Under the pieces are notes generated by a model. That model made no database searches. It was not told the origin of the DNA and saw only the letters and a program-made list of their open reading frames with translations. This document shows positions 1-59,400 of a stretch of 64,000 bases of DNA, piece after piece. The first letter of the stretch is position 1. Each line of letters begins with the position of its first letter. The DNA is taken from the NCBI GenBank assembly GCA_910584255.1, contig CAJTXV010000006.1, positions 1,280-65,279 of the forward strand, written 5' to 3'. The position numbers were made by a program, and so were the translations under genes. This stretch comes from an uncultured Bacilli bacterium (GTDB taxonomy: Bacteria > Bacillota_I > Bacilli_A > RF39 > UBA660).

Positions 1-1933
1 TATTTCCATGAACAATATCATCATCTGAAGTATTCTTAGAACTGAAATTAAATTCAGGTTTTACTTCAATAATTGGTGTTACTGGTGCAGGTTGAGTTGG
101 TTCCTCTTTTATTCCTTCCTTCTCATCATCTTTTCTTCTCTTCCATAATAGGAATAATAGTAAGAATAATAGTAATCCGATAATACCAGAAATAATTCCA
201 AATTGTAGAGGAGATAGACCTAAAATTGTGTTTTTCTTAGCTTCTTTTTCTACATTAATTGTATAATATTTTGTAAATCCATTCTTATCAGTTACTTTCA
301 CTAAAACAGTATTTTTACCCTCTTTTAGATTATCATTACCAATAATTTCATATTTAGAATCTGGATCTTTAGTAACTGCTTTAATATCCAATTTATCTGT
401 TTTTCCATCTACTTTTAAATCATACTCTAATGTATTTGAATCAAAGCTTGGACTTAATGTTCCATTGGTTACCGTTAATTCTTTTAAGTCTGTTTTTCCA
501 TTTTGAGTACTACGAGTAACATTCAAAGTATAAACACGGACTGTTCCATCTTCTGCTGTTACTTCAACTTCGACAGTATTCATTTCTCCAACTAGGAAAT
601 TACTGTTTCCATTGACTTTTACTTTTGCATTTGAATTATTTGTAACATAAGTTAAATCAAGTTTATCTACTTCATAAGGTACTGTTACAGAATAATTGGA
701 GGTATTTTTATTAAATTTTGGACTAATTTCATGTGATGAATTAATAATTAAATCTTTTAAGTAATTGTCTGATGATTTAGGTTTAGGTGTAGATGTATTA
801 TTTGTTTTAGCTGCCTCCCTAGTTACATTGACAGTATATGTATTTACGTTACCATTTTCTGCAGTTACTTTGATTGTAACAACATTCACTCCTACTTTCC
901 AGTTTCCATTACCAGAAACTTCAACACTTGATTTTCCACTATTAGGAACTGCATTTACATCTAAACCTGTAATATTATTTTTAACAGTGATAGAATACGT
1001 ATTTACATTACTCTTAAATGTAGGTTTTAATGTATAGCCACTAACATTTAAGCTTTTTAATGTTGCATCTCCATCTTTTGCTGGTTCATTTTGTTTTTCT
1101 TTTTCAATATTAATTGTATATGTTTTTTTCGTTCCATCTTCTGCGGTTACTATAACTGTAGTTGTTGTATTATCACCAGTTAAATTAACATTCCCAAGTC
1201 CTGCGACGGTTGCCTTTCCATGATTTGCACTACCCTCTATTCTTACATTGGTAGCACTACTTGGTACTTTAATTGTGTAATGATCTGTATTTGGTGAGAA
1301 ACTTGGACTTAAATTATATCCACTCACTCCTAAACTCTTTAATGTTGCGTCATTACTCTTTTGTGCAGGTGGCGTTGGTGTACTTGGATTCGTTGGTGAT
1401 GGCGTCGGTGTACTTGGATTTGTTGGGGTTGGTGTACTCTTTTTTGGAACAATTTTAATTTTAAGCGGTACCAAATTGGCTGGAAATTTGTTATCCATAT
1501 CTGATATTCTCAGATCATTCATTGTAAGTTCTGTTTCACCCTCTTTTAGTGCTTTGAACTTAAAACTCATTACTTTCGTTGGTCCACTACCTGTAATTCC
1601 ATTCGTCATATCATTATCAACACCGCCAATTTTATAATTATTTTTGGTATTGATTGAAACTGGATATGGTGCTCCATCTGATGAGGCAGACACATATTCT
1701 AAATAATCTTTATCAAAGACTACATATCCTCCAATACTTACGACACCACCCACTGTATCAATTACATTCGAAACATTTAAATTAAATGTTACCTCTGTGC
1801 CAACCTCTACTTCTGTTTTTCCACTAAATCCAACAGTCGCTGCTGCTGCTGCATTTACTGGAATTGCAAAACTAAACGTTGACCAAATGAGTGCAAAAAT
1901 AATTAATAAATTTAAACTCTTATTCTTTTTCAT
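1..1933 (-). CDS. Membrane-anchored surface protein (3' end runs off the window): signal peptide, cohesin-like module, Pro/Thr linker, 4 cadherin-like beta-sandwich repeats, TM helix, charged tail
   Basis: Absent from the ORF track because the frame is open to position 1. My own minus-strand translation starts at ATG 1933-1931 (AGGAGG 4 nt upstream). It gives MKKNKSLNLLIIFALIWSTFSFAIPVNA then ATVGFSGKTEVEVGTEVTFNLNVS...VVFDKDYLEYVS...VMSFKFKALKEGETEL (cohesin-like, ~1448-1840). A TPTPTNPSTPTPSPTNPSTPTPP linker follows, then four ~85-aa repeats ending TAEDGTKKTYTINIEKE / TAENGNVNTYTVNVTRE / TAEDGTVRVYTLNVTRS / TDKNGFTKYYTINVEKE. The TM segment is ILGLSPLQFGIISGIIGLLLFLLLFLLWKRRKDDE (~140-225). 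Confidence 0.75.
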   Translation of the reverse strand, partial: MKKNKSLNLLIIFALIWSTFSFAIPVNAAAAATVGFSGKTEVEVGTEVTFNLNVSNVIDTVGGVVSIGGYVVFDKDYLEYVSASSDGAPYPVSINTKNNYKIGGVDNDMTNGITGSGPTKVMSFKFKALKEGETELTMNDLRISDMDNKFPANLVPLKIKIVPKKSTPTPTNPSTPTPSPTNPSTPTPPAQKSNDATLKSLGVSGYNLSPSFSPNTDHYTIKVPSSATNVRIEGSANHGKATVAGLGNVNLTGDNTTTTVIVTAEDGTKKTYTINIEKEKQNEPAKDGDATLKSLNVSGYTLKPTFKSNVNTYSITVKNNITGLDVNAVPNSGKSSVEVSGNGNWKVGVNVVTIKVTAENGNVNTYTVNVTREAAKTNNTSTPKPKSSDNYLKDLIINSSHEISPKFNKNTSNYSVTVPYEVDKLDLTYVTNNSNAKVKVNGNSNFLVGEMNTVEVEVTAEDGTVRVYTLNVTRSTQNGKTDLKELTVTNGTLSPSFDSNTLEYDLKVDGKTDKLDIKAVTKDPDSKYEIIGNDNLKEGKNTVLVKVTDKNGFTKYYTINVEKEAKKNTILGLSPLQFGIISGIIGLLLFLLLFLLWKRRKDDEKEGIKEEPTQPAPVTPIIEVKPEFNFSSKNTSDDDIVHGN

Positions 1934-2154
1934 ACTTCCTCCTACTGGTTTTTAAATTTATAGTAGGTAATAAATTCATATCACTACTAACCCTTTATTC
2001 ACTTTTTATTAACATGTAATATCAACTGAAATACTAATACAATAATGATTTCTTCCTCTATAATCCCTCCTATTATATATATTAGCATACTCTAAATGTA
2101 ATTAAAAGTGTTTTCTATATCATTTTACCTTTTTATTAGATTTTAATATATTTA

Positions 2155-2194
2155 TAGCGCTATCTATTATAAAATTTTAATAATAGTAGCGCTA
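2155..2194 (-). terminator. AT-rich long hairpin 3' of the dockerin-protein gene (weak terminator call)
   Basis: tagcgctatctattat (2155-2170) pairs with ataatagtagcgcta (2180-2194) with one bulge and a 9-nt loop. It lies ~40 nt after the stop at 2237. There is no clean U-tract. Confidence 0.3.
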
Positions 2195-2236
2195 ATGACA
2201 TATTATCTAATTATTCATTTGTATTTGCATTTATTT

Positions 2237-5200
2237 TTAGTATAAAAGAGAATTTCCTAAGTAATGATTGATTACTTTTACTGAATCAAACATATCAATA
2301 TCTCCGTCACTATTTACATCTGCAGCTTCTTGATAAGCTCCACTCAGTTCTTTAAATCCTAAATAATGGTTAATTATTTTTACTGAATCAAACATATCAA
2401 TATCTCCATCTCCAGAAGGGTCTCCCTTGATTACAATATATTTACGATCTTTTTCCTCTCCATCAATCATTAATTTTACAATCATTCCTGTTGCAACGGG
2501 ATCAGTATCCGCAACTTGACTAGTTTCATCTGCTGTCCATATTTCTAGATATTCATTGGGATTATCTAATTGATCTTTCATTTCACTACCAGTTGTATAT
2601 AATTTTACTGTTTTAATGAAATCATTTTCAATTGTATGTCCAAAAGTTACTGATGTAATCTTATCTGCAATGTCATTTTCTCTATTGATTGTTACTTTAT
2701 ATGTTTTTTCTGTTCCATCTTGTGCAGTTACTAAAATTGTTACTATGGTTTCTCCACTAGCAAGTGGTGAAAGACTTAATATGTATGGTGAAGTAACTGT
2801 TGTTCCATTTACTTGTAATGTAGCTGTAGAATCTTCTGTTGTAGCAGTAATATCCATACTTGTAACTGTACGATCTACGTCTACTGTGTATTCTAATTTT
2901 GTTTTTTCAAATGTTGGATCTAATGTTCCATTGTTTACTGTAAGACTACTTAGGAATGCATTATCTGACTTTACTACTGTATAGTTAATTGTATATGTCT
3001 TATTTGTCGTTCCATCTGCTGCCGTTACTTTTACTTTTACTGAATTTGCACCAAGTGTATTTGGAATTGAAATAATATTGCTTGTTTGAGAAGTACCAGT
3101 TGTATCAATATACTCTACTTGAGAAGTAAGATTTGTTGGTGTTGCGTTGATTTCTAATTGAGTCGTTCCATAAATTACATTTCCAATATTATAAGTTTCA
3201 TCTGCTGGTACAAAGTTTGGTGATAATGTATGGTCTGTTACACTTAGACTTGCTAGTGTTGCATCATTACTCTTTGCTTCTTCAATTGTAAATGTATATG
3301 TTTTGGTAGTTACCCCATCCTCTGCACGAGTTGTAATTTGAACTGGACTATCTGCTAGAGTATAAGTACCTTCTCCATATACGTCTGTAGTTGATACATT
3401 AGGTGTTGCAGCGATAGTGAAACTTGTTGTTCCAATTGGAAGCGTAATCTTATAATTTTCATTAGCTGGTACAAAGTTTGGTGATAAAGATCCACCTGTA
3501 ACAGTTACACCAGATAATGTTGCATCCGTTGATTTTGGACGAATTACTTTAATCGTATAAGTTTTTTGTGTATGTCCATCTTCTGCAGTTACATTGATTT
3601 CATAGAAATTATCAGTCGTTGTAGATAAAGTTAAAGCTGCATCTTTTACTACTGCTGCATTTCTATCTACTGGGATTGCTGTAATTTCATTTGGTGATAA
3701 AGTTTTTTTAGTCTCATCTACTGTAATTTCATAATCAAATGTATCTCTATCAAAAGTTGTATTTAAAGTTTGTCCACTGATTACTAAAGAGCTTAATCTT
3801 GCTTCGTCATTTTTTTCTCTTGTAATCTTAATGATATAAGTCTTTGTATCTCCATTTTGTGCTTTTACTGTTACTTCAAATGTATTTAACCCTGTTTGTA
3901 ATGCTTTATTTCCTGTACCAGTAACAGTTGCATCTGTATCAGATTTTGTAGCACCAATTTGAATACTTGTTTTTGAATTATGAACATTCGTTAATGTATA
4001 TTCTAACGTATCTTTATTAAATCCAGGAACGGTTGTTCCATCTACTGTTAAATCTGTTAAATCATTATCTGTTTTTTGTGCTCTTACTACTTTAATTGTA
4101 TAGTCATTGAAAGCACCTGATTCACTTTTAACACGAATTGTAACTGTGTTATCTCCTACATTTAATGAATGATTTCCTGTACCACTAATAATTTCAGCAC
4201 GAATATCTGTTAAGGTAGCAGCTACATCAATAGATGCAATGTTTCCTGGAACATTTACAGTATAAGAATTAGTTCCTGGTGCAAAAGTTTGATTCCAAGT
4301 TCCTACATCAGTTCCATCTGAAGTAATTGAAATGCTATCTAACGTATTTATAGTAGATTTTTCTCTTTCTACGACTAATGTATAATCTTTGGTAGTTGTT
4401 CCATCTTCTGCTGTTACTGTTAAAGTAATATTTTTTGTACTTTCAGTAGCTCCCATTGTATGAGTAGTTCCATCTACTGGTGAAATTGTAGAAGTTGCTA
4501 GAATTTCAGTCGTTAAAGTGAAGTCAGTTGTATTAGCGGGTACTGTAATTTTACAAGTGTCACCACTCATAATACAACTTCTACTGCTATCTGCTCCAAT
4601 ATTTAAAGTTACTTTAGAAAGTGTTGTTGAAGTAGATGCTTCTCTTGTAACTAATACAGTATAAGTTTTTGAATCTCCTGATTCGCTTTCTACAGTAAAT
4701 TGATAAGTGTTTACTCCTGTTGTTGATAAAGAAATTGAATTTCCTTTGGTAACGGTTGCTCCATCCCCTACTGTAACAACTACATCACTTGGATCTAATG
4801 TCGTTTGTCCATTTGGAAGAGTTACTTCGTAATTACCCTCACTATTTAATGTAGGTGTTTTTCCTGCAATTGTTAATCCATGCACAGTGTTATCACTGTT
4901 TTTGTCACGTTCAATGTTGATTATATATTCGTTAAAGTCAACCCCATTTTGAGCAGTAACTTTGACAACAATCTGATTAGGTCCAGTTGATAAGTTTACT
5001 GTTCCATCTCCAGTTACTGTTGAATTTGTATCTGTTTTGGCAGCTCCAACTGTAACTGATGTTTGATTGTAAGGAACACTTCCTGAAACTGTATAGGTGA
5101 ATGTATTTTTGTTAAATCCAGTAACGGTTGTTCCCTCAATAGTTAAATCATCTAATGTTGCAACATTTGATTTTTCACGAGTTACCGTAATTGTATAAGC

Positions 5201-7300
5201 TTGTTCATCTCCATTTTCTGCTTTTACTGTGATGGTAACTGTATTCGTTCCAAATTGTAAGTTTGTATTTCCAGTAATTGATTTAATTGTTGCTCTTGGT
5301 GCATCTTCTGCGACTGCGTTTACTGTAACGCTATCAACATTTGAAGCTACTGTTGCTGTATAACCGAAAGTTGTTTTTACAAATGGTTCGTTTAAAGATG
5401 CTTCATCCATTGATAAACTTGATAAGAATTTGTTATTAGATTTACTACGAGCAAATGTAATTGGATAAACTTGAATTGTACCATCTTCAGCAGTTACAAT
5501 TACCGATGCGGATGTTACTGTATTTCCGAAATTTGCAGTTGCTGAATTTAATTGTGGAGTTCCCGTTGCAGTAGGATTACTTGTAGTATCTACAATTGCT
5601 ACTTGTGCTTTATCAGTATCTGCTACCGTGGCAGTTACAGTCACTTGTATAACTGTTGCATCATAACTATAAGTATATCCTGTAGTATTGGTATTTGAAA
5701 AACTAGGTGACATTGTTCCTTGTGGAGTACTTGTAATTGAAAGACTTGCAAGTTTTACGTCATTTGATAATCTTTTTACTTTGATTGTATAGGTATCTTC
5801 TGTTCCATCTTGTGCTTTTACTACAACATTGAAAGTATTATCTCCAACATTTAAGTTAACGCTTCCAGTACCACTTTTAATTGTTGCTTTTCCAGTATCT
5901 TCAACAGTTGCTCCAATTGTCATAGTAGTTTTTGAATTAGATACATCAGGAAGTGTATATGTTTTAGTTGTTTTTATAAATCCAGGAACAGTAGTTCCAT
6001 CGACTGTTAAATCACTTAAGAATTTATTGCTAGAGGCTGCTTCTCTTGTAATTTCAATTGTATAGTCTTGATCTGTACAACTATTTCCTGGTACACTTCT
6101 ATACTCTGTTTTACAGTTTTCTGCTTCTACTTTTACTATTTTTGTATTTTTAGTAGTTCCTGTATCGGTTAAATTCCATGCACCTGTACCACTTTTTACA
6201 GTTGCATTAGTGTGAGTAGCTGTTGCTGAAACTGTAGTACTTGTTGTTGTATAAGGTACAGTTGCAGTATAAGTATATTTTCCTGCTTGTAAGGATCCAA
6301 TTGAAATTGAATTTGTTAAGGTTAGACTAGTTAGAGTTGCATCATTTGATAAACGATATACATTTACTGTATAAGTTTCTGTATCCCCATTCGCAGCTGT
6401 TACAACGATATCAAAATTATTATCTCCAACACTCACTGACTTTGTTCCAAGTCCTGCAGGTAAAATAGTCGCTCCGCTATCACTTGCTGTAGCCGCTAAA
6501 TCAACAGAAGTAATATTATTAGGTACAACTGCTTTATAAGATGTGTTGGTAGCATCTCCTGGTGTAAATGTTGGATCTAAAGCATAAGTTGTTGATCCAT
6601 TTGTTACAGTTAAAGTTTTTAAACTGGCATCATTAGATGTCTCTGCTTCTGGAGAAGTTAATGTCATATTTGATAATGAATAAGGTCTTACTTGATCTCC
6701 ATTGTCATCAGAAAAATCCGTATCTCCTGGTTCATCTCCCAAAGTTAAGGTAATATCTTCATCCGCACTTACATCATCATTTAATTTTAAGAATACATAC
6801 CCTAACTCTGTATCTTGACTAATCGGAGTCATTGTATTCGCGGTATCCTCTATATAATAACTGATATCACCAGGGCCTCTAACATTAAACAAGGTTGCCC
6901 AAGTTCCTCTTCTTCCTGATTTTGGAAATTGATCTTCGTCAAAAAAATCGTCTCCTTCTTGTACAAGTGGTGTCCACTTTGTAGAGTCATAACGAAGGGT
7001 TGCATTTAATGCTACTACATTATGAGAATCCCCTGGACTATAATTTAGGATTACCATTACAGTAGTTCCAGGTTTTACCGTATCTCCATCTGCAATCGTC
7101 TCAGTGAGATTTCCTGCTAAGTAATCATCCATACAGGCATAATAGATATCCTTACCTGTTTTGTCAGTATAATTTTCTACAGGACATACAACTCCGCTTA
7201 AGCTAAGTTTATGCTCTGCTGCTGCAAATACTTGATTTGGTAAACTTAATGCAAACATTAAAACCATGCTAACTAATAAATATTTTAATTTCTTGTTCAT
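2237..7300 (-). CDS. Giant secreted surface protein (1,687 aa): signal peptide, N-terminal beta-sandwich (cohesin-like?) module, 14 cadherin-like beta-sandwich repeats, C-terminal type-I-like dockerin
   Basis: 5,064-nt ORF with signal peptide MNKKLKYLLVSMVLMFALSLPNQVFA. I count 14 repeats of ~85-95 aa, each ending in the ...TA(E/Q)(D/N)G...(T/D)Y(T/I)(I/V)xVxR signature (ETYTVNVYR, DTYTIKVKR, QAYTITVTRE, KTYTVLVTRE, KTYIIKITRE ...). This is typical of the 'Cadherin-like beta sandwich' family. The tail is a duplicated Ca-binding dockerin (next feature). Confidence 0.85.
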   Translation of the reverse strand: MNKKLKYLLVSMVLMFALSLPNQVFAAAEHKLSLSGVVCPVENYTDKTGKDIYYACMDDYLAGNLTETIADGDTVKPGTTVMVILNYSPGDSHNVVALNATLRYDSTKWTPLVQEGDDFFDEDQFPKSGRRGTWATLFNVRGPGDISYYIEDTANTMTPISQDTELGYVFLKLNDDVSADEDITLTLGDEPGDTDFSDDNGDQVRPYSLSNMTLTSPEAETSNDASLKTLTVTNGSTTYALDPTFTPGDATNTSYKAVVPNNITSVDLAATASDSGATILPAGLGTKSVSVGDNNFDIVVTAANGDTETYTVNVYRLSNDATLTSLTLTNSISIGSLQAGKYTYTATVPYTTTSTTVSATATHTNATVKSGTGAWNLTDTGTTKNTKIVKVEAENCKTEYRSVPGNSCTDQDYTIEITREAASSNKFLSDLTVDGTTVPGFIKTTKTYTLPDVSNSKTTMTIGATVEDTGKATIKSGTGSVNLNVGDNTFNVVVKAQDGTEDTYTIKVKRLSNDVKLASLSITSTPQGTMSPSFSNTNTTGYTYSYDATVIQVTVTATVADTDKAQVAIVDTTSNPTATGTPQLNSATANFGNTVTSASVIVTAEDGTIQVYPITFARSKSNNKFLSSLSMDEASLNEPFVKTTFGYTATVASNVDSVTVNAVAEDAPRATIKSITGNTNLQFGTNTVTITVKAENGDEQAYTITVTREKSNVATLDDLTIEGTTVTGFNKNTFTYTVSGSVPYNQTSVTVGAAKTDTNSTVTGDGTVNLSTGPNQIVVKVTAQNGVDFNEYIINIERDKNSDNTVHGLTIAGKTPTLNSEGNYEVTLPNGQTTLDPSDVVVTVGDGATVTKGNSISLSTTGVNTYQFTVESESGDSKTYTVLVTREASTSTTLSKVTLNIGADSSRSCIMSGDTCKITVPANTTDFTLTTEILATSTISPVDGTTHTMGATESTKNITLTVTAEDGTTTKDYTLVVEREKSTINTLDSISITSDGTDVGTWNQTFAPGTNSYTVNVPGNIASIDVAATLTDIRAEIISGTGNHSLNVGDNTVTIRVKSESGAFNDYTIKVVRAQKTDNDLTDLTVDGTTVPGFNKDTLEYTLTNVHNSKTSIQIGATKSDTDATVTGTGNKALQTGLNTFEVTVKAQNGDTKTYIIKITREKNDEARLSSLVISGQTLNTTFDRDTFDYEITVDETKKTLSPNEITAIPVDRNAAVVKDAALTLSTTTDNFYEINVTAEDGHTQKTYTIKVIRPKSTDATLSGVTVTGGSLSPNFVPANENYKITLPIGTTSFTIAATPNVSTTDVYGEGTYTLADSPVQITTRAEDGVTTKTYTFTIEEAKSNDATLASLSVTDHTLSPNFVPADETYNIGNVIYGTTQLEINATPTNLTSQVEYIDTTGTSQTSNIISIPNTLGANSVKVKVTAADGTTNKTYTINYTVVKSDNAFLSSLTVNNGTLDPTFEKTKLEYTVDVDRTVTSMDITATTEDSTATLQVNGTTVTSPYILSLSPLASGETIVTILVTAQDGTEKTYKVTINRENDIADKITSVTFGHTIENDFIKTVKLYTTGSEMKDQLDNPNEYLEIWTADETSQVADTDPVATGMIVKLMIDGEEKDRKYIVIKGDPSGDGDIDMFDSVKIINHYLGFKELSGAYQEAADVNSDGDIDMFDSVKVINHYLGNSLLY
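2240..2428 (-). other. Dockerin module (two EF-hand-like repeats) at the C-terminus of the 1,687-aa protein
   Basis: GDPSGDGDIDMFDSVKIINHYLG - 16 aa - DVNSDGDIDMFDSVKVINHYLG. Each half has the 12-residue D-x-(S/N)-x-D-G-x-I-D-x-x-D calcium loop followed by a helix, as in type-I dockerins. The DNA shows the matching ~30-nt near-identical repeat tttactgaatcaaacatatcaatatctcc. Confidence 0.75.
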
Positions 7301-7455
7301 AATAACAACTCCAATCCTTCTTTTATCTTAATTCGACTATAGCAAACAATTTGACAACTGACTAGATTTTTTATGCAAAACAGATGTAAATAGTTGTCAA
7401 AAATTGTAAATTTCTATCCATAAGTAATCTTTTTACATTTTTTTGACTGTTATAT

Positions 7456-7503
7456 AAAAAAGAACCTATTAGGTTCTAGAATTGAAAAAAGCACGACGCG
7501 TGC
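7456..7503 (-). terminator. Two tandem rho-independent terminators after the 7507-8007 gene
   Basis: On the minus strand: gcacg-cgt-cgtgc followed by TTTTTT (7485-7503), then agaacct-aat-aggttct followed by TTTTT (7456-7477). They separate the small gene from the giant dockerin gene. Confidence 0.55.
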
Positions 7504-7506
7504 CTT

Positions 7507-8007
7507 CTATTGTTTATCTTGATTTTCTTTTTTAGCTTCATCTGTTTTTTCTGGTGTCTTTGTTTTCTCTTGCTTCTTTTCACTTTCGAATCCACAAACA
7601 AGATTTACTTCAATTTTATATGACTCTTTATTATAGGGTGACTGTGGATAAATAATTGCTTGTGTTTTATCCTTATCACAAGATTTATTTGTTTTCTTAT
7701 TTACAAATTCTTTTAATATTTCTTCACTGTCTTCGCCTTTGTAACGAGCAAGAGTTCCTAAATCAATTTTAATTCCAATGGTTTCAAACTTCTTTAGAAT
7801 CGTATTTTTTTCTTCTCCTGAGTTTTCAACTTGCTTATAATAGAGTTCTTCATAGAATTCTTTCCCCATTGTCTCTATTTTTTTCTTTAATTCTTCCTCT
7901 TGGGAAAGTTTTTTACCAAATGGGTTTAAAACTACAATCAGAACAACAAGAATTACTACTAAAACACTCACAATTATAATTAATATGTTTTTATTTAATT
8001 TTTTCAT
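7507..8007 (-). CDS. Small N-terminally membrane-anchored Lys/Glu-rich protein, function unknown
   Basis: 166-aa ORF with a single N-terminal TM helix (ILIIIVSVLVVILVVLIVVL) and a charged C-terminal tail. No motif recognised. Confidence 0.55.
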   Translation of the reverse strand: MKKLNKNILIIIVSVLVVILVVLIVVLNPFGKKLSQEEELKKKIETMGKEFYEELYYKQVENSGEEKNTILKKFETIGIKIDLGTLARYKGEDSEEILKEFVNKKTNKSCDKDKTQAIIYPQSPYNKESYKIEVNLVCGFESEKKQEKTKTPEKTDEAKKENQDKQ

Positions 8008-8265
8008 AACTACCTACCTACCTTATAGTTCGATTATAACACATTCTTTTTTAAAAAGACAAGGCTTTGATTATTTGAGTTTCGGTTTTCTACGAAAAAC
8101 TTATGTAAAATTATAAAAGTTTCTGAATTTTTAATAAAATGTTCCAAATTTTATAACAAAAAAGTGAATCTGTGGATAACACATTTTCACCTTTTCTTTT
8201 TTACTAAATTTTACTGGAACTCAAATTTGATTAAAGAAAAAGAAAGATTGTTCAATTTTTCCTTT

Positions 8266-9018
8266 TTAGAACCAATTTTTAAGTTTTAAAACAAAGTCCT
8301 TTAATATTTTTTGAACTGTTTCAGTATGAAAGTTACTTTTAGCAAGATTTATTTGGATTGGACTAGGTGTTGGCATTGTCTTTGCTACTTCCACTTTTAC
8401 TTCTTGTTTCTTTTCTTCTACTTTGACTTTTTGTTGTGGTTTCTCATTTACAGGTTTTACTTCTGTTTTTTCTAAAACTGTTTCTTCTTTTTGTGGTTCA
8501 TTTACTACTTCGTTTAAGATTGTATTTTCTGTATCCATGACTACTTCTTCGTTTTTTTCAATTTCCACGGTCTGATCCAATACTGTTGTAGTAATATATC
8601 CCATGCTATCCGTTAATTTGGCTCTTTCTAAAGTAATATTAGTGATTCCTTCTTCTAAGGCTTTAAATGTGAACTCATAGACTGTTGTAGTATCATAAAA
8701 TCCATTTCTTAATGTAAAGTCTAGACCTGCAATCATCATTGTATTGATATTCATTTGAAACTGATATGGTTTTTCCATTGCTTTTGAAGAAACAAATTCT
8801 AACTTTTGATTATCAAATGATAAATGTCCTCCCATACTAACTACACCATCATAAGTATCGTTAATATCAGATACTTGTAAACTTACTTTAAAAGTATCTC
8901 CAATTTGCACCTTGTTTTCTGATACTAGACTTACATTGGCTGTTCCTTGCGCTTCTACTGGCACTGCTGTTAATAATAAACTTGCTAAAATCGTGCTAAA
9001 TAAAATTTTCTTTTTCAT
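8266..9018 (-). CDS. Secreted protein with N-terminal cohesin-like module and Lys/Glu/Pro-rich tail
   Basis: Signal peptide MKKKILFSTILASLLLTAVPVEA. Then ANVSLVSENKVQIGDTFKVSLQVSDINDTYDGVVSMGGHLSFDNQKLEFVSS...VYEFTFKALEEGITNITLERAKL, the same layout as the module in the 1-1933 protein and as cellulosomal cohesins. Confidence 0.65.
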   Translation of the reverse strand: MKKKILFSTILASLLLTAVPVEAQGTANVSLVSENKVQIGDTFKVSLQVSDINDTYDGVVSMGGHLSFDNQKLEFVSSKAMEKPYQFQMNINTMMIAGLDFTLRNGFYDTTTVYEFTFKALEEGITNITLERAKLTDSMGYITTTVLDQTVEIEKNEEVVMDTENTILNEVVNEPQKEETVLEKTEVKPVNEKPQQKVKVEEKKQEVKVEVAKTMPTPSPIQINLAKSNFHTETVQKILKDFVLKLKNWF

Positions 9019-9105
9019 CCCTTATTCCCCCTAAGTTGCTGCATATTATACCATAAATTGGTAAATTCGTCAATAGTTTATTATTATTATTTGATAACGT
9101 TTCCA

Positions 9106-10670
9106 AAGTGTGGAGATTCTAAAAACAAACCCTTATGAAACTAAAAAAACGGTTAAAAACCTATAAAATGCTTTACAATTGAGTTGTCTAAAAACAATAG
9201 AAAGCGAGGTTTTAGCCGTATGAAAATTATACCACTTATTAATGAAATCACTAATAGTTTCAATGAAATTTTTAAGAATAATTTAAATCCACTTAACTTC
9301 GAAAGCAAAATTCGAGATGTTGGAGATGTATTTACTTTAAAATTATATGAATCCTTTCTTAATTATTTTGATGACTAGTTTAAAAGGAAAAAAGTAAGAA
9401 AAGGTCAGTATAATATCAAAGAAACCAGAAAAAGAGTTTTAATAACCTCAGTTGGTACTATAACTATAAATTCAACTTCCTATATTGATAAAAAAACAAA
9501 AGAGTATTATGTTCCGTTAAGGGATATTCTTCATTTAAGCCCTTATCAAAGATTAACTAATGAAGCAGAATATCAATTAATTAAATATGTCATGGACGAA
9601 AATATGAGTCCATCTGCTCGTTATGCTTTAACAAACACCATTATATCTTGTAGTACTGTCTCTAAAAAAATTGGCAAATTAGATAGTACTGTTAGTGATG
9701 TCATTACTAGATGTGAAAATCAACCTGATGTTTTATATATTGAAGTGGATGAAATTCATGCTAATCTTCAACATTGTTCATGAAGGGTATGAGGAAACAT
9801 TTGTTAAAAGAAAAAAACTTAAAAATATTCGTTACTTTGCTTCTTCTAAACTAGCATATGAAAATCTTGGGAAAGTTATCTTTGACTATGTTGATAAAAG
9901 ATATGATATTGATAAATTTAAGATTATATTTGTGTCTGGTGATGGTGATACTGGTATTAAAAATTATGTGAATTGTTTTCTGAATGTCAAATTTGTTCTT
10001 GATCCTTTTCACTATATCCAAAAACATATGAATTATATTTTTAAAGAGGATATAATTTCAAGAAATATCGCTGATGATTATATTAGAAATCACTTAATAG
10101 ATAACTTTAAAGAACTAGTAAACTATCAAATAAAAAAATATCCTGAACAAGAAAAGTATATGGAAGAACATATGAATTACATTATTAATAACATACAAGG
10201 AATCAAAAAGATCCATTATATAAATACCATTGTTCTATGGAGGGACATGTTAATCAAGGATTCGCCAGATATATTACTTCTTCCCCTTATGGATTCTCTG
10301 AACAAGGGCTAGAAAATAAACTTAAATTATTAGTTTATCATGCCAACAAGCATGACTTAACTATTGAAGACTATTGCAACTTGAAATATGGAAATAACTC
10401 TTATAAAGATATAAATATCAGGATTAGGAAATTATGTAATATAAAATATGATCAAAAATTAACTTTCAATCATTCTTTAGAATATAAAATAAATACTAAT
10501 TTACTAATTCTAGACTCTGTTTCTGAAAATAACAGATTAAGGGCGATAACTTCTATGAGGCAAGAAATTTATGTAATATAAAAGGGATAGATATTGACTA
10601 TCTACACCTTCTAACTTACAATTAGTTTAAATTATAAATCTTATTTCTTAGGTTAAAAATCTCCACACTT
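9106..10670 (+). mobile_element. Decayed ISLre2-family (UPF0236-type) insertion sequence with 13-bp perfect terminal inverted repeats
   Basis: AAGTGTGGAGATT at 9106-9118 and its exact reverse complement AATCTCCACACTT at 10658-10670 bracket the broken transposase frames. No clear target-site duplication seen. Confidence 0.6.
9184..10581 (+). pseudogene. ISLre2/UPF0236-family transposase, broken into at least four frames
   Basis: ORF-track pieces 9184-9378, 9592-9783, 9695-10312 and 10237-10581, plus an untracked stretch (KGQYNIKETRKRVLITSVGTITINSTSYIDKKTKEYYVPLRDILHL), read consecutively like one UPF0236 transposase. Matching elements are ...LYIEVDEIHANLQ..., ...FVSGDGDTGIKNYVNCF...FVLDPFHY... 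A stop lies at 9379 and there are frame changes near 9780 and 10240-10310. Confidence 0.6.
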
Positions 10671-13365: not shown

Positions 13366-14169
13366 TTAATTTCTATTTCTCTCTTCTTCTATTAAATATT
13401 CTAAATTTCCCTGAATTTCTTCTCCCTGCAATATTTTTAAAGGATTTTCTCTTGTTAGTTCTTCTAATTTCTTTTTTCCAACTATTCTTTTCAGCTTCTT
13501 TAAAGATTTTCTTAATCCTTTTTTCTTCTCTACATAATGAGTATCTGTTGCTACAAACTCTACTAAATCATTCTTTAAAAGCCATTTCATGAGTTTTTTA
13601 GCTTTTTTTCCATATTTTCCTGTAATACTATCTATATTACATTGTAGTAGGCATCCAAACTCTAAGAGTTCTTTGACTCTTTCTTTATTTTTTTGAAGAA
13701 AATGATATCGTTCTGGATGTGCAATAATTGGAACTATTCCAGAATCAAATAGTTTACATAAAGTATTTGGTAAATTATTTAGGTATCCTGTTAAAGGAAG
13801 TTCTACTAACATATACTGTGTATCATTTAACGTAACAATTTCTTCTTTTTCTAATAAGTCAAGAATATCTTCTGTTAAGTAAACTTCGTTTCCTAAGTAT
13901 AGATTGATTCCCATATTAGAAGATGCTTTTTTGAGTTCTTCAAAGATATTTTCTCTTTCCTTTTTATTAGAAGTATAACTTGTATTTTTAATATAGTGAG
14001 ATGTTAATACTATATCTGTAATTCCAACTTTTTTTAAGTACTCAATAATTTCTAGACTCTCATCCATTGTCTTTGCACCATCATCAACGCTTGGTAACAC
14101 ATGGGTATGAATATCAATTATTTTATCCATAGTAATGTCCATAGTATTTCTTAGAACTTGCATTTGCAC
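13366..14169 (-). CDS. cpsB: Capsule tyrosine-protein phosphatase, PHP family (CpsB/YwqE-type)
   Basis: IDIHTHVLPSVDDGA...LTSHY...IIAHPERY...ATDTH metal-ligand motifs. The real start is probably MDKIIDIH (14130) or MDITMDK (14142), slightly overlapping the upstream kinase gene. Confidence 0.85.
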   Translation of the reverse strand: MQMQVLRNTMDITMDKIIDIHTHVLPSVDDGAKTMDESLEIIEYLKKVGITDIVLTSHYIKNTSYTSNKKERENIFEELKKASSNMGINLYLGNEVYLTEDILDLLEKEEIVTLNDTQYMLVELPLTGYLNNLPNTLCKLFDSGIVPIIAHPERYHFLQKNKERVKELLEFGCLLQCNIDSITGKYGKKAKKLMKWLLKNDLVEFVATDTHYVEKKKGLRKSLKKLKRIVGKKKLEELTRENPLKILQGEEIQGNLEYLIEEERNRN

Positions 14170-14794
14170 GATTTAATACAGTTCCTAAGATATTGGCATT
14201 TACGTTTTCTAAGCTTTTTTTCGTTGTTTTTAGTAAAGATGCTGGTGTTTCTTTATGCACACTTACAATTACTACCCCATCTACCAAAGTACTCATAATC
14301 AATGAGTCAGTTAAACCACCATTGACAGGTGCAGAATCGAAGATTATTAAGTCGTAAGATTCTTTTAGAATTTCAATTAATTCTTTATTTTTAGCAGAGC
14401 CTAATAATTCAGATGGATTCGGTGGTGTTACCCCACGAAACATAACAGAAAGATTTTTAATCTTTGTTTCCATAATATATTCTTGATATTTTTCTCTTAC
14501 GTTCTCAAGTAATAGATTCGATAATCCTTTATGATTATGAGAATCAAAAATATAATGTTGACGTCCTTTTCTTATATCACAGTCTACTAATAAGACCCTA
14601 GTTCCACTTTGTGCAAAGGCTACCGCTAAATTGGCTGCAATAAAACTTTTTCCCTCTCCTGGTACACTACTTGTAATTAAAATTGTACGTAATTTTTTAT
14701 CTACAGAGGCAAATTGCAAATTGGTTCTTAGTGTACGAATTGTTTCACTAATAATAGATTTTGGATCGTTATTTAATACTAACTCTTTATACAT
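14123..14794 (-). CDS. cpsD: BY-kinase catalytic subunit (CpsD/YwqD-type tyrosine-protein kinase)
   Basis: Walker A SSVPGEGKS, Walker A' VLLVDCDIR and Walker B LIIFDSAP, with a Tyr-containing C-terminal tail KKYYGHYYG. Start set at MYKELV (14794), preceded by AAGGGAGGGG. The ORF-track start at 14857 would overlap cpsC. Confidence 0.85.
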   Translation of the reverse strand: MYKELVLNNDPKSIISETIRTLRTNLQFASVDKKLRTILITSSVPGEGKSFIAANLAVAFAQSGTRVLLVDCDIRKGRQHYIFDSHNHKGLSNLLLENVREKYQEYIMETKIKNLSVMFRGVTPPNPSELLGSAKNKELIEILKESYDLIIFDSAPVNGGLTDSLIMSTLVDGVVIVSVHKETPASLLKTTKKSLENVNANILGTVLNRANASSKKYYGHYYG

Positions 14795-14807
14795 TTGAAC
14801 CCCTCCC

Positions 14808-15491
14808 TTATTTTCTCTTTCTTTTTCCTTTATATTTTGGTACTGTAGCAAGTACACTTAGTCCAATCTTTTCTTCGATATCTTCTGGCTTTTTAATAGA
14901 ATCATCCAAGTAGAAACAAATAGTAATAATCATACTAGCAAGTAAAAATCCTGCCCCAATTCCTATTACATACTGTTTCACAATATTTACATTATATGGT
15001 TCTCTTGCTTCTACAGCCTCATCGACAATACTAATATTTTCAATATTGTAAATACTTGTAATTTCTGCTTTAAATACTTTAGCAATTTCATTTGCAATAT
15101 TTCTGGCAATTCGCCCATGCTCATCTGTAACTGAAATGATAATTAATTCGGTATCATTCGCACTCGTTACACTAATTCTGCTACCAAGCTCTTTTTCTGT
15201 CATATCCAAGTTTAAGTTTTCAATTACCCTTGATAATATTCTTCGACTCTTGATAATCTCACGATAAGTAGATACTAAGTTTTTATTTAAAGAGATATCA
15301 TTTTGTGTAATTGTCGAATTAGAATTATTAGAACGTGTTAATACTAAGCTAGTCTGTGACTTATACATTGGTACTTGAATATTCTCATTGTAGTAAATAG
15401 ACGCAACTGTTCCAATTAATACAAATAAAATGACAATAATAAATTTACTGAAATAATATTTAATAAATTCCGAAATATTAAATTCTTCCAT
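14808..15491 (-). CDS. cpsC: Wzz/CpsC-type chain-length determinant (BY-kinase transmembrane modulator)
   Basis: 227 aa with N- and C-terminal TM helices around a ~150-aa extracytoplasmic domain (...YKSQTSLVLT...LVSTYREIIKSRRIL...). It directly precedes cpsD. Confidence 0.8.
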   Translation of the reverse strand: MEEFNISEFIKYYFSKFIIVILFVLIGTVASIYYNENIQVPMYKSQTSLVLTRSNNSNSTITQNDISLNKNLVSTYREIIKSRRILSRVIENLNLDMTEKELGSRISVTSANDTELIIISVTDEHGRIARNIANEIAKVFKAEITSIYNIENISIVDEAVEAREPYNVNIVKQYVIGIGAGFLLASMIITICFYLDDSIKKPEDIEEKIGLSVLATVPKYKGKRKRK

Positions 15492-15517
15492 ACTTCCACC
15501 CCTTCATAATGGCTCAT

Positions 15518-15546
15518 ATTATACTACAAAATGAACAAAAATGCAA
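15518..15546 (-). promoter_or_regulatory. Sigma-70-type promoter for cpsC-cpsD-cpsB
   Basis: Minus strand: TTGCAT (15546-15541), 17 nt, TATAAT (15523-15518), ~25 nt before the cpsC RBS GAAGGGGTGGAAG. Confidence 0.5.
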
Positions 15547-15576
15547 TCATTTTTTATGAAAATTTTATATATCAAG

Positions 15577-15620
15577 AAAACGGAAAAAGAATGAACCAAT
15601 TGTTTAATTATTCATTCTTT
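15577..15620 (-). terminator. Rho-independent terminator after the 15628-16185 gene
   Basis: Minus strand: aaagaatgaa / ttcattcttt 10-bp stem (15586-15595 / 15611-15620) followed by TTCCGTTTTC. Confidence 0.5.
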
Positions 15621-15627
15621 CATACAA

Positions 15628-16185
15628 TTACTTTTTTAAAACTACTTCTTTCGGAATATCTTTGATTTGAGAGAGGCCTTCTGTGATTTTATAATTTTTA
15701 GGAATTAGAAAGCTTTTCTTTTCAATTGGAATGAAACTACTCCCCAAAGTTGCAGTGCTGATTTTTTCTTGATCTAAAAAATCAGTCATAGAATGAAATT
15801 CAATGATTGGTTGAATCCTTTCTCCCAGGGTATTCTCTTTTGTAGTTTGAAAAACAGTTGCGGTGTATACAATTAATTGATTGTCTTTTACAATCCATTT
15901 GGCAAAATTCGTAGTTACTTCTACATTATAAGTTTCTTGCCTCCCAAAATTTTCTTTCCAAAATGATTGAAAGTTATATTCATGTCGTATGACTTCTACA
16001 ATTGTTACACTCTTTTTGTCTAAATCTAGTTTTGCCTCTATCGAATGTTCAAAATTTTCATCATTTCTATGTTCTTTCCCATAAAAAAGAAGAGATTCTG
16101 TTTCTTTTTGATAGAAAACATCCAAATTATCAACGGACATTCCTACTTTTTCTATAAATTCTATGATTGCTAAGATATGATTCAT
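15628..16185 (-). CDS. Hypothetical cytoplasmic protein (185 aa)
   Basis: Clean ORF with RBS; no motif recognised. Confidence 0.5.
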   Translation of the reverse strand: MNHILAIIEFIEKVGMSVDNLDVFYQKETESLLFYGKEHRNDENFEHSIEAKLDLDKKSVTIVEVIRHEYNFQSFWKENFGRQETYNVEVTTNFAKWIVKDNQLIVYTATVFQTTKENTLGERIQPIIEFHSMTDFLDQEKISTATLGSSFIPIEKKSFLIPKNYKITEGLSQIKDIPKEVVLKK

Positions 16186-16245
16186 AATTTTCTCCCCTTT
16201 TTTACACTTCTTAGTATTCTATGATATGAATCATATTTTGTTCCA

Positions 16246-16836
16246 TTAATTTTTTATTACTTTCTTGATTTCCTCGATGGTCTTTGTGATTTTCTCTTCT
16301 TGTTCTAAAATATCGTTATACTTTAAACATTCATTAAATTCTTTATGATAAATCATCTTCATCCCACTACTATCGGCAAAACTTCCTAAAGAGGTTAATG
16401 CGCCATCTGTTGAATATTCTTCTTTTTTCTTAGAACCAACAACAAGGGCAATCATCTTTTTTCCCTCTAGTTTTCTGGAAGCATATAATGGATTCAGTCG
16501 ATCCATAAATATTTTTAAATCTCCTGATAATAGATTCCAACGCGTTGGGGTAATAAAAATTAAATATTCTGCTTCTTTTACCTTTTCAACGTTTTCTACC
16601 ATATCGTCTTTAAAATCACAAACACCTGTTTCATCACAATCCATACATCCAGTACATAAATAAATTTTTTGATTCCCTGGAGTGATGGTATCTACCGAAA
16701 TTCTTTCCTTTTTTAAAGCCTGTTTTATTTTCTTTTCTAAAAGAACACAATTCCCTTCTCTTCTAGAACCAATAATTGTTAGTACTCTTGCCATAATATC
16801 ACCATTATTAGTATGGAATAAAAATATTTTTTTCAT
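16246..16836 (-). CDS. Flavodoxin-fold NADPH-dependent FMN reductase / iron-sulfur flavoprotein
   Basis: VLTIIGSRREGN (FMN-binding loop), Cys cluster CTGCMDCDETGVC, and ...TPTRWNLLSG... The start may be MARVL (16794). Confidence 0.65.
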   Translation of the reverse strand: MKKIFLFHTNNGDIMARVLTIIGSRREGNCVLLEKKIKQALKKERISVDTITPGNQKIYLCTGCMDCDETGVCDFKDDMVENVEKVKEAEYLIFITPTRWNLLSGDLKIFMDRLNPLYASRKLEGKKMIALVVGSKKKEEYSTDGALTSLGSFADSSGMKMIYHKEFNECLKYNDILEQEEKITKTIEEIKKVIKN

Positions 16837-16889
16837 GCAATTCAGTGAAAGAAATATATATACCTTTTTCTAAGTGTATTATTATAAAT

Positions 16890-17240
16890 TTAGAGTAAAT
16901 TTGCTAGTAACGCTGTTAAGTTTCCAATATTCCTATGTTTTTTATAGAATACCTTTACATTATATCTTCGATCTTCATGATTTGTATTCTTTGACCTCGA
17001 ATCATAGTATTTATTGTTAGTTAAAATCCAAAAAAATTTTTCTAAAAATTCATCTATATTATTTTTCACTGCTTGGTTTACTTCCTTTGTGCCATTTTTG
17101 CATTTATAAAGTCTTACTAAATCACTATCAAGCATCACTTGTTTTTCCCTTATTTCATATATTAGATTTTCCATTTTTTCTTTTTCTTGTACTAATAATT
17201 CATTCGTCCTTTCATCTGCTTTCTTTACAGTTAAATACAT
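16890..17240 (-). CDS. ORF6N-domain-only protein, diverged and truncated tandem paralogue of the next gene
   Basis: LLVQEKEKMENLIYEIREKQVMLDSDLVRLYKCKNGTKEVNQAVKNNIDEFLEKFFWIL aligns residue-for-residue with LLIQENEKIGNLIYEIRGTQVMLDSDLAKLYECTNGTKDVNKAVNRNIERFPKDFYFQL of 17258-18181. It ends just after the ORF6N domain. Confidence 0.55.
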   Translation of the reverse strand: MYLTVKKADERTNELLVQEKEKMENLIYEIREKQVMLDSDLVRLYKCKNGTKEVNQAVKNNIDEFLEKFFWILTNNKYYDSRSKNTNHEDRRYNVKVFYKKHRNIGNLTALLANLL

Positions 17241-17257
17241 AGTTTTATAATATTTTT

Positions 17258-18181
17258 TTATATAATTTTATTTACTTTTCCAATTAGCATATTACACACA
17301 TCATCGTCATTAATTAAAGTAATGGAAAATGTTTTATAACCAATCCTATTAATACTAGCTCCACAATGATATATAATCTTGTCATCTAAAATAAAGTATC
17401 TATCATGAAATGTATTATCATATATGACTTTTAAATTATGATATTGTTCATTATATTTTAAGACATCTTGGTTCGTAATATAGTTGCTAGATTTCGTAAT
17501 AATCGTTACATCTATATTTAATTTTTTTATAATATCCAATAATGTATTATCAGCATAAGCATCAATTATTATTAACTTTATTTTTACCTCTTTAAATATT
17601 TCCTGGATCTTAGAATAAGCATCAAAGATTTGACCATTAAAATATATTTCATTCACTTTTTTCTTTTCTTCAAATTTTTGAAAAGTATCTTCTAATTGTT
17701 TAATTTTTTTATGATCCTCTAGAACTATATTATTTATATACTTTTGCTCTATTAGATTATTGCTAATATAATGTCTCATTGCTACAAATGCACGCATAAT
17801 TGAAACACTTATTTGTGAAGCAATATTCGTTTTTAATACAGATGCAAGCATAGCCACTCCCTGTTCAGTAAATACATAAGGTAATTTTCTAATACCACCA
17901 TGACTACTAAATCTTGAAGTTCCATTTTGGAACTTCAAATTATCATACTCTTTTTTAGTTAATTGAAAGTAAAAGTCTTTAGGAAATCGTTCAATGTTTC
18001 TGTTAACTGCCTTATTAACATCCTTTGTTCCATTCGTACATTCGTAAAGTTTTGCTAAATCACTATCAAGCATCACTTGCGTTCCTCTTATTTCATATAT
18101 TAAATTTCCTATTTTCTCATTTTCTTGTATTAGTAATTCATTCATCTTTTCATCTACTTTCTTTATAATCAAATACTTCAT
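17258..18181 (-). CDS. ORF6N (KilA-N-related) DNA-binding domain protein with uncharacterised C-terminal domain
   Basis: VMLDSDLAKLYECTNGTKDVNKAVNRNIERFPKDFYFQLTKKEYDNL...LPYVFTEQGVAMLASVL is the ORF6N signature. The C-terminal ~120 aa contain FHDRYFILDDKIIYHCGASINRIGYK. Confidence 0.7.
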   Translation of the reverse strand: MKYLIIKKVDEKMNELLIQENEKIGNLIYEIRGTQVMLDSDLAKLYECTNGTKDVNKAVNRNIERFPKDFYFQLTKKEYDNLKFQNGTSRFSSHGGIRKLPYVFTEQGVAMLASVLKTNIASQISVSIMRAFVAMRHYISNNLIEQKYINNIVLEDHKKIKQLEDTFQKFEEKKKVNEIYFNGQIFDAYSKIQEIFKEVKIKLIIIDAYADNTLLDIIKKLNIDVTIITKSSNYITNQDVLKYNEQYHNLKVIYDNTFHDRYFILDDKIIYHCGASINRIGYKTFSITLINDDDVCNMLIGKVNKII

Positions 18182-18237
18182 TTACATTATACAGAAGAAA
18201 TATTCCAGTCGCCTGAAATTTTCTAAAACAAAAGAAC

Positions 18238-18738
18238 TTAATCATTTTGACTAAGTTCCTTTGTTTTATTAAAGTTTTTTTGTTTTAGAAAGTACAAATA
18301 ACCAATTGATAATACACTTCCACTAGTATCTATTAATACATCTAGAAATTTAGCAGTTCTACCATCAGAGAATAGCTGATGAATCTCATCACTACAAGCA
18401 TAGAGAAAGCAAAAGAGAGTTGCATATAAGAGAATGTTTGACACCCCATACATTTCAAAAATTTTAAATATCAAAACTCCTAGAATAAAGTATTCTGTAA
18501 AATGGGCAGTCTTTCGAACTGTTACTCTCATCTTTTTTACCATATTTGCTTTTTCTAAAGGAGAAATTTCTTTTCCCCTAACTTTTACTACTATATCAAT
18601 CATTTTTGAAGCTATCTTGTCACTCAAAGAAAGACTACTTACAACATTTTGATTAGAAAATCCAAAAATTACAATCATCCAAATCATTAATATAGTAACT
18701 AGTACTTTCCTTTTTGCTTTCACTTCAAACACTTCCAT
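18238..18738 (-). CDS. VanZ-family membrane protein
   Basis: Four TM helices and ...KTAHFTEYFILGVL...DEIHQLFSDGRTAKFLDVLIDTSG..., the VanZ-like motif. Confidence 0.75.
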   Translation of the reverse strand: MEVFEVKAKRKVLVTILMIWMIVIFGFSNQNVVSSLSLSDKIASKMIDIVVKVRGKEISPLEKANMVKKMRVTVRKTAHFTEYFILGVLIFKIFEMYGVSNILLYATLFCFLYACSDEIHQLFSDGRTAKFLDVLIDTSGSVLSIGYLYFLKQKNFNKTKELSQND

Positions 18739-18750
18739 ATCTATACTTAT

Positions 18751-20214: not shown

Positions 20215-20302
20215 GGTAACTTCACCCCTAAAGTGCCTTATATTATAGCACAAAAACAAGTTAAAATCTAGAATTATTTATAAATATTTCAATACACTGA
20301 AT

Positions 20303-47790: not shown

Positions 47791-47871
47791 AATACCCCCT
47801 CCTAAATTGGCACATATTTTACTATAATTTCTTGTATTTGTCAAGTATTTTCATTTTTATTTAATTTTTTT

Positions 47872-52619: not shown

Positions 52620-52632
52620 AAAAATCCTCCTT

Positions 52633-58743: not shown

Positions 58744-58744
58744 A

Positions 58745-59374: not shown

Positions 59375-59400
59375 ATTTTTTCCTTCCTGCTTTCTATTTT

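Follow-up and report, generated by a model that had tools for sequence, protein, structure and literature searches.

A cohesin-dockerin gene cluster on cadherin-like repeat proteins of uncultured gut Bacilli, with a predicted giant rod held on membrane-bound cohesins

For years, surveys have listed cohesins and dockerins that do not belong to cellulosomes, most of them with neither a partner nor a function assigned; Peer et al. reportedly drew up a catalogue of such non-cellulosomal modules in 2009. What, then, might a whole cluster of these modules do in a gut bacterium? The question is raised by a stretch of 64,000 nucleotides (hereafter the window) from an uncultured Bacilli bacterium (contig CAJTXV010000006.1 of assembly GCA_910584255.1). 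Its positions 1-9018 are filled by open reading frames (ORFs) of the minus strand, termed D (8266-9018), C (7507-8007), B (2237-7300) and A (starting at 1933), and a further gene, E, lies past the left edge of the window. Gene A is cut by this edge, with the first 644 of its 741 residues inside the window. An exact-sequence look-up of D retrieved an identical locus on 23 independent metagenome contigs, which supplied the DNA beyond the window, namely the full gene A and gene E. The cluster D-C-B-A-E totals four cohesins (in D, B, A and E, exactly one per protein) and two dockerin types (in B and E). An earlier reading of the window from sequence alone (the sequence-only reading) had described a non-cellulosomal cohesin-dockerin set on cadherin-like repeat proteins, one cohesin protein of which is anchored in the membrane. 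The domains and the transmembrane helix reported below confirm this observation, and the cluster is larger than first described. We propose, with a probability of roughly 0.6, that the five genes encode a structural, non-enzymatic surface system in which a giant rod would stand on membrane-held cohesins.

The first step is to establish what the N-terminal modules of A and D are. The module of A has 138 residues (aa 29-166; 1436..1849, minus strand, as are all features of A to D given below), and that of D comprises aa 24-158 (8545-8949). They are homologous to each other, with 37% identity and an E-value of 1e-21. Full-length Pfam and NCBIfam scans revealed no cohesin in A, B, D or E, a single-sequence phmmer search of the PDB with the N-terminal modules gave nothing significant, and a word-indexed homologue search with the module of A gave no relatives, which an exhaustive search of representative proteins then found. 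Scanned in isolation, the modules of A and D scored 25.5 and 27.9 bits, respectively, against Pfam Cohesin (PF00963, cut-off 24.1 bits). The missing cohesin in the full-length scans is thus a filter effect, not an absence, because the isolated modules pass the cut-off.

A two-sequence profile of the A and D modules, run against 1.84 billion representative proteins, retrieved 189 relatives at E<=1e-3, and 49 cohesin modules of relatives in this A/D family were aligned (alignment A2). PF00963 was matched by 44 of the 49 members, with a best E-value of 1.3e-14. Search of the PDB with the A2 profile returned solved cohesins and essentially nothing else, including ScaB of Acetivibrio (E-value 1.5e-9), the anchoring cohesins of C. 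thermocellum and the non-cellulosomal NagJ cohesin of C. perfringens (PDB 2jh2 and 2ozn, E-value 1.7e-5). The AlphaFold2 model of the A module, built with the A2 alignment, is all-beta, with a predicted local distance difference test score (pLDDT) of 97.4 and a predicted template modelling score (pTM) of 0.90. Structural similarity search of the PDB using Foldseek placed cohesins at all top 42 positions (E-values 1e-8 to 1.6e-5, TM-scores 0.55-0.77), including the R. flavefaciens ScaB/ScaC cohesins (PDB 5n5p and 5lxv) and the NagJ structures; the A module has the β-sandwich jelly-roll of the cohesin fold. The single-sequence AlphaFold model of D, at a pLDDT of 49, was too poor for use. As the isolated Pfam scans, the A2 profile and the AlphaFold2/Foldseek results agree, the N-terminal modules of A and D are true cohesins. 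The sequence-only reading had called them cohesin-like and had named profile searches lacking cohesin support as the outcome that would count against it; the profile searches gave that support. The 95 best representatives of the family comprise 60 short, D-like proteins and 35 long ones; cadherin-like repeats are found in 31 of the 35 long members, and 28 of the 35 have a transmembrane helix at the C-terminus.

Gene A (1..1933 in the window) encodes a membrane-anchored protein with a single cohesin. Its signal peptide and cohesin are followed by a spacer (242..1438), which consists of a PT linker (aa 166-190) and four Cadherin-like repeats (aa 194-564; PF12733, E-value 5e-41). A transmembrane helix (aa 573-597, 143..217) comes next, the hydrophobic stretch LSPLQFGIISGIIGLLLFLLLFLLW being followed by KRRK as a basic stop-transfer sequence. 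The cytoplasmic tail begins at 2..142 and continues for 97 residues past the window edge, giving 144 residues in total (aa 598-741 of L001:17086-19311) with a charged, coiled-coil-like end. Every part that had been read from the sequence, namely the cohesin module, PT linker, four repeats, transmembrane anchor and tail, was found. With its cohesin and transmembrane helix, A falls into the predicted class of membrane-anchored monovalent anchoring scaffoldins, and the same layout is shared by 28 of the 35 long homologues. The tail has no Pfam family; five species share its conserved motifs TPIIEVKPEFNF..SDDDV.HGN and PYDPYDETVTKKE.IDAI...KLKMLL, and this conservation suggests an intracellular partner.

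A wall-less organism, which would explain anchoring in the membrane, was considered and rejected: an LCP protein in the window and a carboxypeptidase-like ORF in a relative, which resembles a D-Ala-D-Ala carboxypeptidase as judged by eye only, argue for a wall. The organism probably has a cell wall, which would make the anchor of A together with its spacer (~24 linker residues and four repeats) plausibly a wall-spanning design.

Gene B (2237..7300) encodes a scaffoldin-like rod of 1687 residues, about 180 kDa. It consists of a divergent N-terminal cohesin (aa 27-222, 6635..7222), a stalk of 14 Cadherin-like β-sandwich repeats (aa 227-1541, 2678..6622), a module designated “X” (about aa 1549-1623, 2432..2656) and a C-terminal dockerin (aa 1625-1679, 2264..2428). 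The 14 repeats that had been counted in B were recovered as 14 stretches matching PF12733 (E-value 2.5e-111), with boundaries set by self-search. The dockerin passes the cut-off of Dockerin_1 (PF00404, 22.9 bits) with 31.9 bits in the full-length protein and 37.6 bits in the C-terminus alone. It is built of two near-identical segments of a calcium loop plus a helix, DPSGDGDIDMFDSVKIINHYLG and DVNSDGDIDMFDSVKVINHYLG, of 22 residues each and identical at 18 of 22 positions, in line with the duplicated dockerin first noticed at this end of the protein. Each segment opens with a complete 12-residue calcium loop of the pattern D-x-[NS]-x-D-G-x-I-x-x-x-D, and the loops DPSGDGDIDMFD and DVNSDGDIDMFD can be read straight from the sequence. 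Altogether, hmmscan supported Cohesin, Dockerin_1 and Cadherin-like alike, Cohesin only on isolated modules. The X module abuts the dockerin directly, linker-free, and is highly conserved among B orthologues; it has neither a Pfam family nor a sequence relative in the PDB. A profile of the X-dockerin unit matches solved dockerins, including 2y3n_B (E-value 0.0016) and 4uyq_B.

Could these modules be relics that no longer pair with each other? In that case the cohesins would bind a ligand or serve as plain Ig-like spacers, the dockerin would be a calcium-stabilised cap, and B would be released or held otherwise. The cohesin scores barely above the Pfam cut-off would suit such a view, as would the second calcium loop of the dockerin, which is degenerate in some B orthologues. 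However, the first calcium loop and both helices are strongly conserved among these orthologues, all loci have cohesin genes side by side with dockerin genes, and B has no alternative anchoring signal. The latter point had been singled out in advance as one that could overturn the dockerin-based reading, and no other dedicated anchoring signal was found on B. We therefore regard a relic origin of the whole set as very unlikely.

The N-terminal module of B belongs elsewhere in the cohesin family. Its isolated sequence scores 25.2 bits against Pfam Cohesin, compared to the cut-off of 24.1. Five of six B-type orthologues match PF00963 (best E-value 2.1e-6), and a profile of the orthologues retrieves only cohesins from the PDB (6kgc and 6kg8, E-value 0.002). 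Membership in the A/D subfamily was ruled out, as BLASTP gave no alignment and hhalign gave probabilities of 28% with the single sequence and 3% with the orthologue profile. That the module represents a separate, divergent and faster-evolving cohesin subfamily is well supported by these comparisons, if not certain. Its N-terminal cohesin thus gives B the layout of an adaptor scaffoldin, with a cohesin and a dockerin on one chain. Outside the stalk, the cohesin, the X module and the dockerin are its only extracellular modules. The idea that B is simply the passenger of the system, a fibrillar adhesin, needs to be changed: the protein has the 14-repeat stalk, but it carries a cohesin of its own and no adhesive tip domain was found in it.

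Gene D (8266..9018) encodes 250 residues, beginning with a signal peptide (aa 1-23). The K/E/P-rich tail previously noted behind its cohesin-like module resolves into a K/E/P/T-rich linker (8335-8544) and a C-terminal cationic amphipathic helix (aa 229-250, 8269-8334), the hydrophobic moment of which is 0.56, compared to 0.20 in the linker. We tested 33 proteins for such a tail, namely 32 D-like homologues and one A-like control. The control failed; 29 of the 33 end in a cationic amphipathic helix of 18-22 residues, each beating 95% of shuffled sequences. The D-like tails have a median hydrophobic moment of 0.64, compared to 0.20 in the linkers, and a median net charge of +3. Low-molecular-weight penicillin-binding proteins have C-terminal amphipathic membrane anchors, and by analogy we infer that the D-like helix would serve as an in-plane tether at the membrane's outer face. 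Gene C (7507..8007) encodes 166 residues, comprising an N-terminal membrane helix and an extracytoplasmic domain of ~130 residues in which two cysteines are conserved. No Pfam or NCBIfam family matches C, which is co-conserved with D and the giant proteins.

Gene E (299 residues) starts 5 nucleotides downstream of A, just outside the window. In its product, the signal peptide is followed by a cohesin, then by a Big_2 domain and lastly by a dockerin of a second type. The cohesin aligns with the A/D family at an hhalign probability of 97.7% (E-value 2e-12) and scores 13.8 bits against Pfam Cohesin (cut-off 24.1). The dockerin, at 32 bits, passes the PF00404 cut-off, as does that of B, and the calcium loops of both are intact, but in sequence its segments, GKITLADAMEVIYFYI and GKLNLSDAIQIINIYL, represent another type than those of B. 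By its composition, E looks like a rearranged remnant in which an E'-type cohesin has been joined to a Big_2 plus type-2 dockerin end. With these further parts, namely C and an E that carries both a cohesin and a second dockerin type, the pairing of the B dockerin with the A cohesin is only one of several possible pairings.

Is this arrangement peculiar to one genome? A scan of species-representative genomes with a 12-sequence alignment revealed seven loci, all in metagenome-assembled genomes of uncultured gut Bacilli, which are labelled “Bacillales bacterium UBA7057” (85% identical), “Tenericutes bacterium UMGS484” and “Bacilli bacterium” from Hadza and water-deer samples. A metagenome scan added 25 further loci, mostly from the human gut. 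In every locus with upstream DNA, a giant Cadherin-like X-dockerin protein is encoded directly upstream of the A-like gene (four genome loci and 14 metagenome loci, which represent fewer distinct species, several being near-identical copies), with a gap of ~10 nucleotides in most of them. Directly downstream of the A-like gene lies a gene for a second cohesin protein, with a cohesin, two to four cadherin-like repeats and, where detectable, a transmembrane helix. A C-like gene follows the D-like gene in the three loci inspected for it (L007, L008 and L009), and in L013 it comes after the cluster. A giant cadherin-like protein then follows the D-like and C-like genes wherever the contig reaches far enough. 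The gene order of D, C, giant X-dockerin protein(s), membrane cohesin A and second cohesin protein is thus kept across the recovered loci, and so is the layout of the giant across species, with its N-terminal cohesin and C-terminal X-dockerin. The conserved adjacency of the giant and A is strong comparative evidence that the two would function together.

In several species there is also a second giant protein, with N-terminal glycine-rich ALK_LTK_GRD domains, Big_2 and a type-2 dockerin, which is absent from the species of the window. In two loci (L009:11402-14401 and L008:12208-14078), three such domains (PF12810, E-value 7.6e-103) precede the cadherin-like stalk. We know of no function assigned to this head domain in bacteria.

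A further question is whether the cluster displays enzymes. In a cellulosome- or amylosome-like arrangement, the four cohesins would recruit dockerin-bearing enzymes encoded elsewhere, and B would act as a long spacer scaffoldin. Cellulosomes have the same cohesin and dockerin folds, and divergent gut cohesin systems that escape sequence detection have recently been reported (bioRxiv 10.64898/2026.02.05.704116). Moreover, a few X-dockerin homologues sit on non-cadherin proteins with CAP (PF00188) or SH3_3 (PF08239) domains. By contrast, nearly all X-dockerin homologues are Cadherin-like proteins or fragments at contig ends. Neither the 64-kb window nor the DNA flanking the related loci yielded a glycoside hydrolase, a carbohydrate-binding module (CBM), a dockerin-bearing enzyme or any further dockerin, and the single cohesin per protein leaves the locus without a multivalent scaffoldin. 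Lacking dockerin enzymes, a multi-cohesin scaffoldin and a CBM in the window and at the related loci, the cluster falls outside the definition of a cellulosome or amylosome, and enzyme display appears quite unlikely. In the cluster and up to ~10 kb away from it, Pfam scans also revealed neither an SLH domain or wall-binding repeat nor a glycoside hydrolase or CBM, and no LPXTG-like signal occurs near the C-terminus of any real ORF in the window. Pfam and motif scans thus agree with the earlier statement that glycoside hydrolase, CBM3, SLH and LPXTG are missing from the neighbourhood.

For the structural system favoured here, we infer from the sequences the binding steps, pairing specificity, topology and biological role as follows. 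All five proteins would be exported via the Sec pathway. A would be retained in the membrane by its C-terminal helix, with the linker and four repeats placing its cohesin ~20-30 nm out, through the wall. D would be a second, smaller cohesin holder, probably tethered by its amphipathic helix to the outer membrane face or to anionic wall polymers. In a calcium-dependent step, the X-module-plus-dockerin of B would plug into the anchored cohesin of A or of D, so that the 14-repeat rod would stand on the cell. At its distal end, the N-terminal cohesin of B would take a further dockerin protein, for which E is the most obvious candidate in this organism and the second giant, with its glycine-rich head, the candidate in its relatives. 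In this respect the cluster would work like the anchoring tier of a cellulosome. Its probable role is to adhere to glycans of the host or diet or to other cells, or to interact with them, as the Pfam description of Cadherin-like PF12733 suggests carbohydrate binding, which is a published prediction.

Several points weigh against this proposal. A and E are separated by 5 nucleotides, compared to the 303 between B and A, and the spacing in this genome would therefore favour the pairing of A with E over that of A with B. Four cohesins and two dockerin types leave several candidate pairings in any case. The cohesin match of the B N-terminal module is weak (25.2 bits, a PDB profile E-value of 0.002 and 3% in hhalign against the A/D family), and in the related lineage L034 the B-type N-terminal module is too diverged for profile detection. 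Lastly, domain scans revealed no recognisable adhesive or enzymatic head in B.

The cohesin at one end of B and the dockerin at the other also raise the question of whether B assembles with itself. The dockerin of one B would bind the cohesin of the next, directly or via E, giving a head-to-tail, pilus-like polymer based in A or D. Both B and E have one cohesin and one dockerin per chain, and the layout of the giant, cohesin first and X-dockerin last, is conserved across species. The B dockerin is, in addition, internally symmetric in 18 of 22 residues, and internally symmetric type I dockerins are associated with dual-mode binding. Nevertheless, adaptor scaffoldins such as R. flavefaciens ScaC likewise combine one cohesin with one dockerin, and no self-polymerisation has been reported for them; moreover, the cohesin of B belongs to another subfamily than those of A, D and E, which suggests a partner differing from that of its own dockerin. 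We consider self-assembly unlikely. It appears quite doubtful, too, that the modules are joints of a modular, non-covalent fibre in which B, with or without E, is chained from A and the cytoplasmic domain of A couples the fibre inward for signalling or positioning. If true, such a fibre would be a third Gram-positive-type route to long appendages, besides sortase pili and type IV pili.

How does the predicted rod on membrane-held cohesins compare to known systems? X-dockerin units serve for attachment to the cell surface in C. thermocellum and R. flavefaciens, and the directly joined X module and dockerin of B recall them. The putative pair of B and A resembles the R. flavefaciens system of CttA/ScaB and ScaE, which likewise has an X-module-dockerin on a non-enzymatic protein, a single-cohesin holder and clustered genes. 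However, ScaE (type III) is fixed to the peptidoglycan by sortase via an LPXTG signal, whereas A uses a transmembrane helix and has a conserved cytoplasmic tail. CttA has cellulose-binding modules, compared to the 14 cadherin-like repeats and N-terminal cohesin of B, and the X module of B has no detectable sequence relative. The adaptor scaffoldins, such as R. flavefaciens ScaC, share with B and E the combination of one cohesin and one dockerin, by which they extend or change specificity. B differs from them in that a repeat stalk of ~1300 residues separates its cohesin from its dockerin and in having no known enzyme clients.

Outside plant cell-wall degradation, the cohesin-dockerin pairs of the C. 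perfringens NagJ/GH84C and NagH toxin complexes have been structurally characterised. Their modules sit on secreted glycoside hydrolases and form enzyme complexes, in contrast to the cluster of the window, which is without catalytic domains. Gram-positive fibrillar adhesins resemble B in their long stalk of tandem β-sandwich repeats. They have an LPXTG anchor and an adhesive tip, instead of the dockerin, a predicted non-covalent attachment, and the cohesin tip of B.

Scaffoldins with a single cohesin plus a transmembrane helix at the C-terminus have been predicted in Lachnoclostridium sp. MSJ-17, H. luporum and C. cibarium (PMC11557425). The same type has been predicted in Ruminococcus difficilis and its relatives, where divergence hid the cohesins from standard annotation (bioRxiv 10.64898/2026.02.05.704116). 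Like A, these proteins combine one cohesin with a transmembrane helix, and their assemblies have been proposed to attach directly to the membrane; membrane anchoring alone is therefore not new. They come, however, from Clostridia, and their proposed clients are enzymes or unknown, whereas A comes from gut Bacilli, has a four-repeat spacer and a conserved cytoplasmic domain, and its putative client, a giant repeat protein, is encoded next door. A targeted literature search found no description of a giant cadherin-like protein with an N-terminal cohesin and a C-terminal X-dockerin, of cohesin proteins with an amphipathic helix, of a conserved D-C-giant-A-E operon or of a cohesin-dockerin system in these lineages of Bacilli.

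The non-coding DNA of the cluster contains a few candidate signals. Upstream of D, a promoter-like site (9045..9073, minus strand) consists of TTGACG-17-TATAAT with a TG extension and matches the consensus at 11 of 12 positions; this is a pattern match only, and the region overall is not enriched compared to shuffled sequences. A terminator-like hairpin after gene C (7461-7477) comes from a pattern scan and is a consensus-level hint only. The intergenic region between B and A (1934-2236) has 303 nucleotides, compared to ~10 in most related species. Within it lie a GGAGGG motif and an inverted repeat rich in AT (TAGCGCTA...TAGCGCTA), and the region may serve as an internal regulatory element or represent the scar of an insertion.

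At the other edge of the cluster, between D and an adh_short gene, a broken UPF0236-family transposase is spread over overlapping short ORFs (9184-10581, plus strand), for which gene calls differ between metagenome contigs with the same locus; it is a decayed insertion element. Further along the window, 13366-20259 and 32115-34079 encode a capsule-type module with Wzz, a CpsD-like tyrosine kinase and a CpsB phosphatase, together with the LCP (LytR_cpsA_psr) protein. A secreted arylsulfotransferase (ASST) is among the upstream neighbours, and an ORF of 861 residues (45259-47844) has no Pfam match. A polymorphic-toxin cassette occupies 52167-59437 (minus strand). It consists, in this order, of a phage baseplate Gp10_C-domain protein (58745-59437), a 2036-residue RHS-repeat protein with a C-terminal Tox-WTIP toxin domain (52633-58743) and a DUF2691 protein after the RHS gene (52167-52649), which is probably an immunity protein.

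What the cluster offers, first of all, is a compact and conserved operon that sets likely partners side by side, with two dockerin types and four cohesins giving eight pairings. Two of the four cohesins are predicted to be held at the membrane, that of A by a transmembrane helix and that of D by an amphipathic helix. The purpose of non-cellulosomal cohesin-dockerin pairs becomes testable through this operon. In addition, full-length Pfam annotation, including the precomputed public tables, missed every cohesin here, and such systems are therefore probably under-counted; the annotation of cohesins in proteins that are rich in repeats or of low complexity is probably incomplete. To our knowledge, nothing has been reported on how these gut Bacilli attach to their surroundings. 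The operon would describe the main large surface structure of an uncultured, small-genome clade of gut Bacilli that is found in humans, including the Hadza, and in animals.

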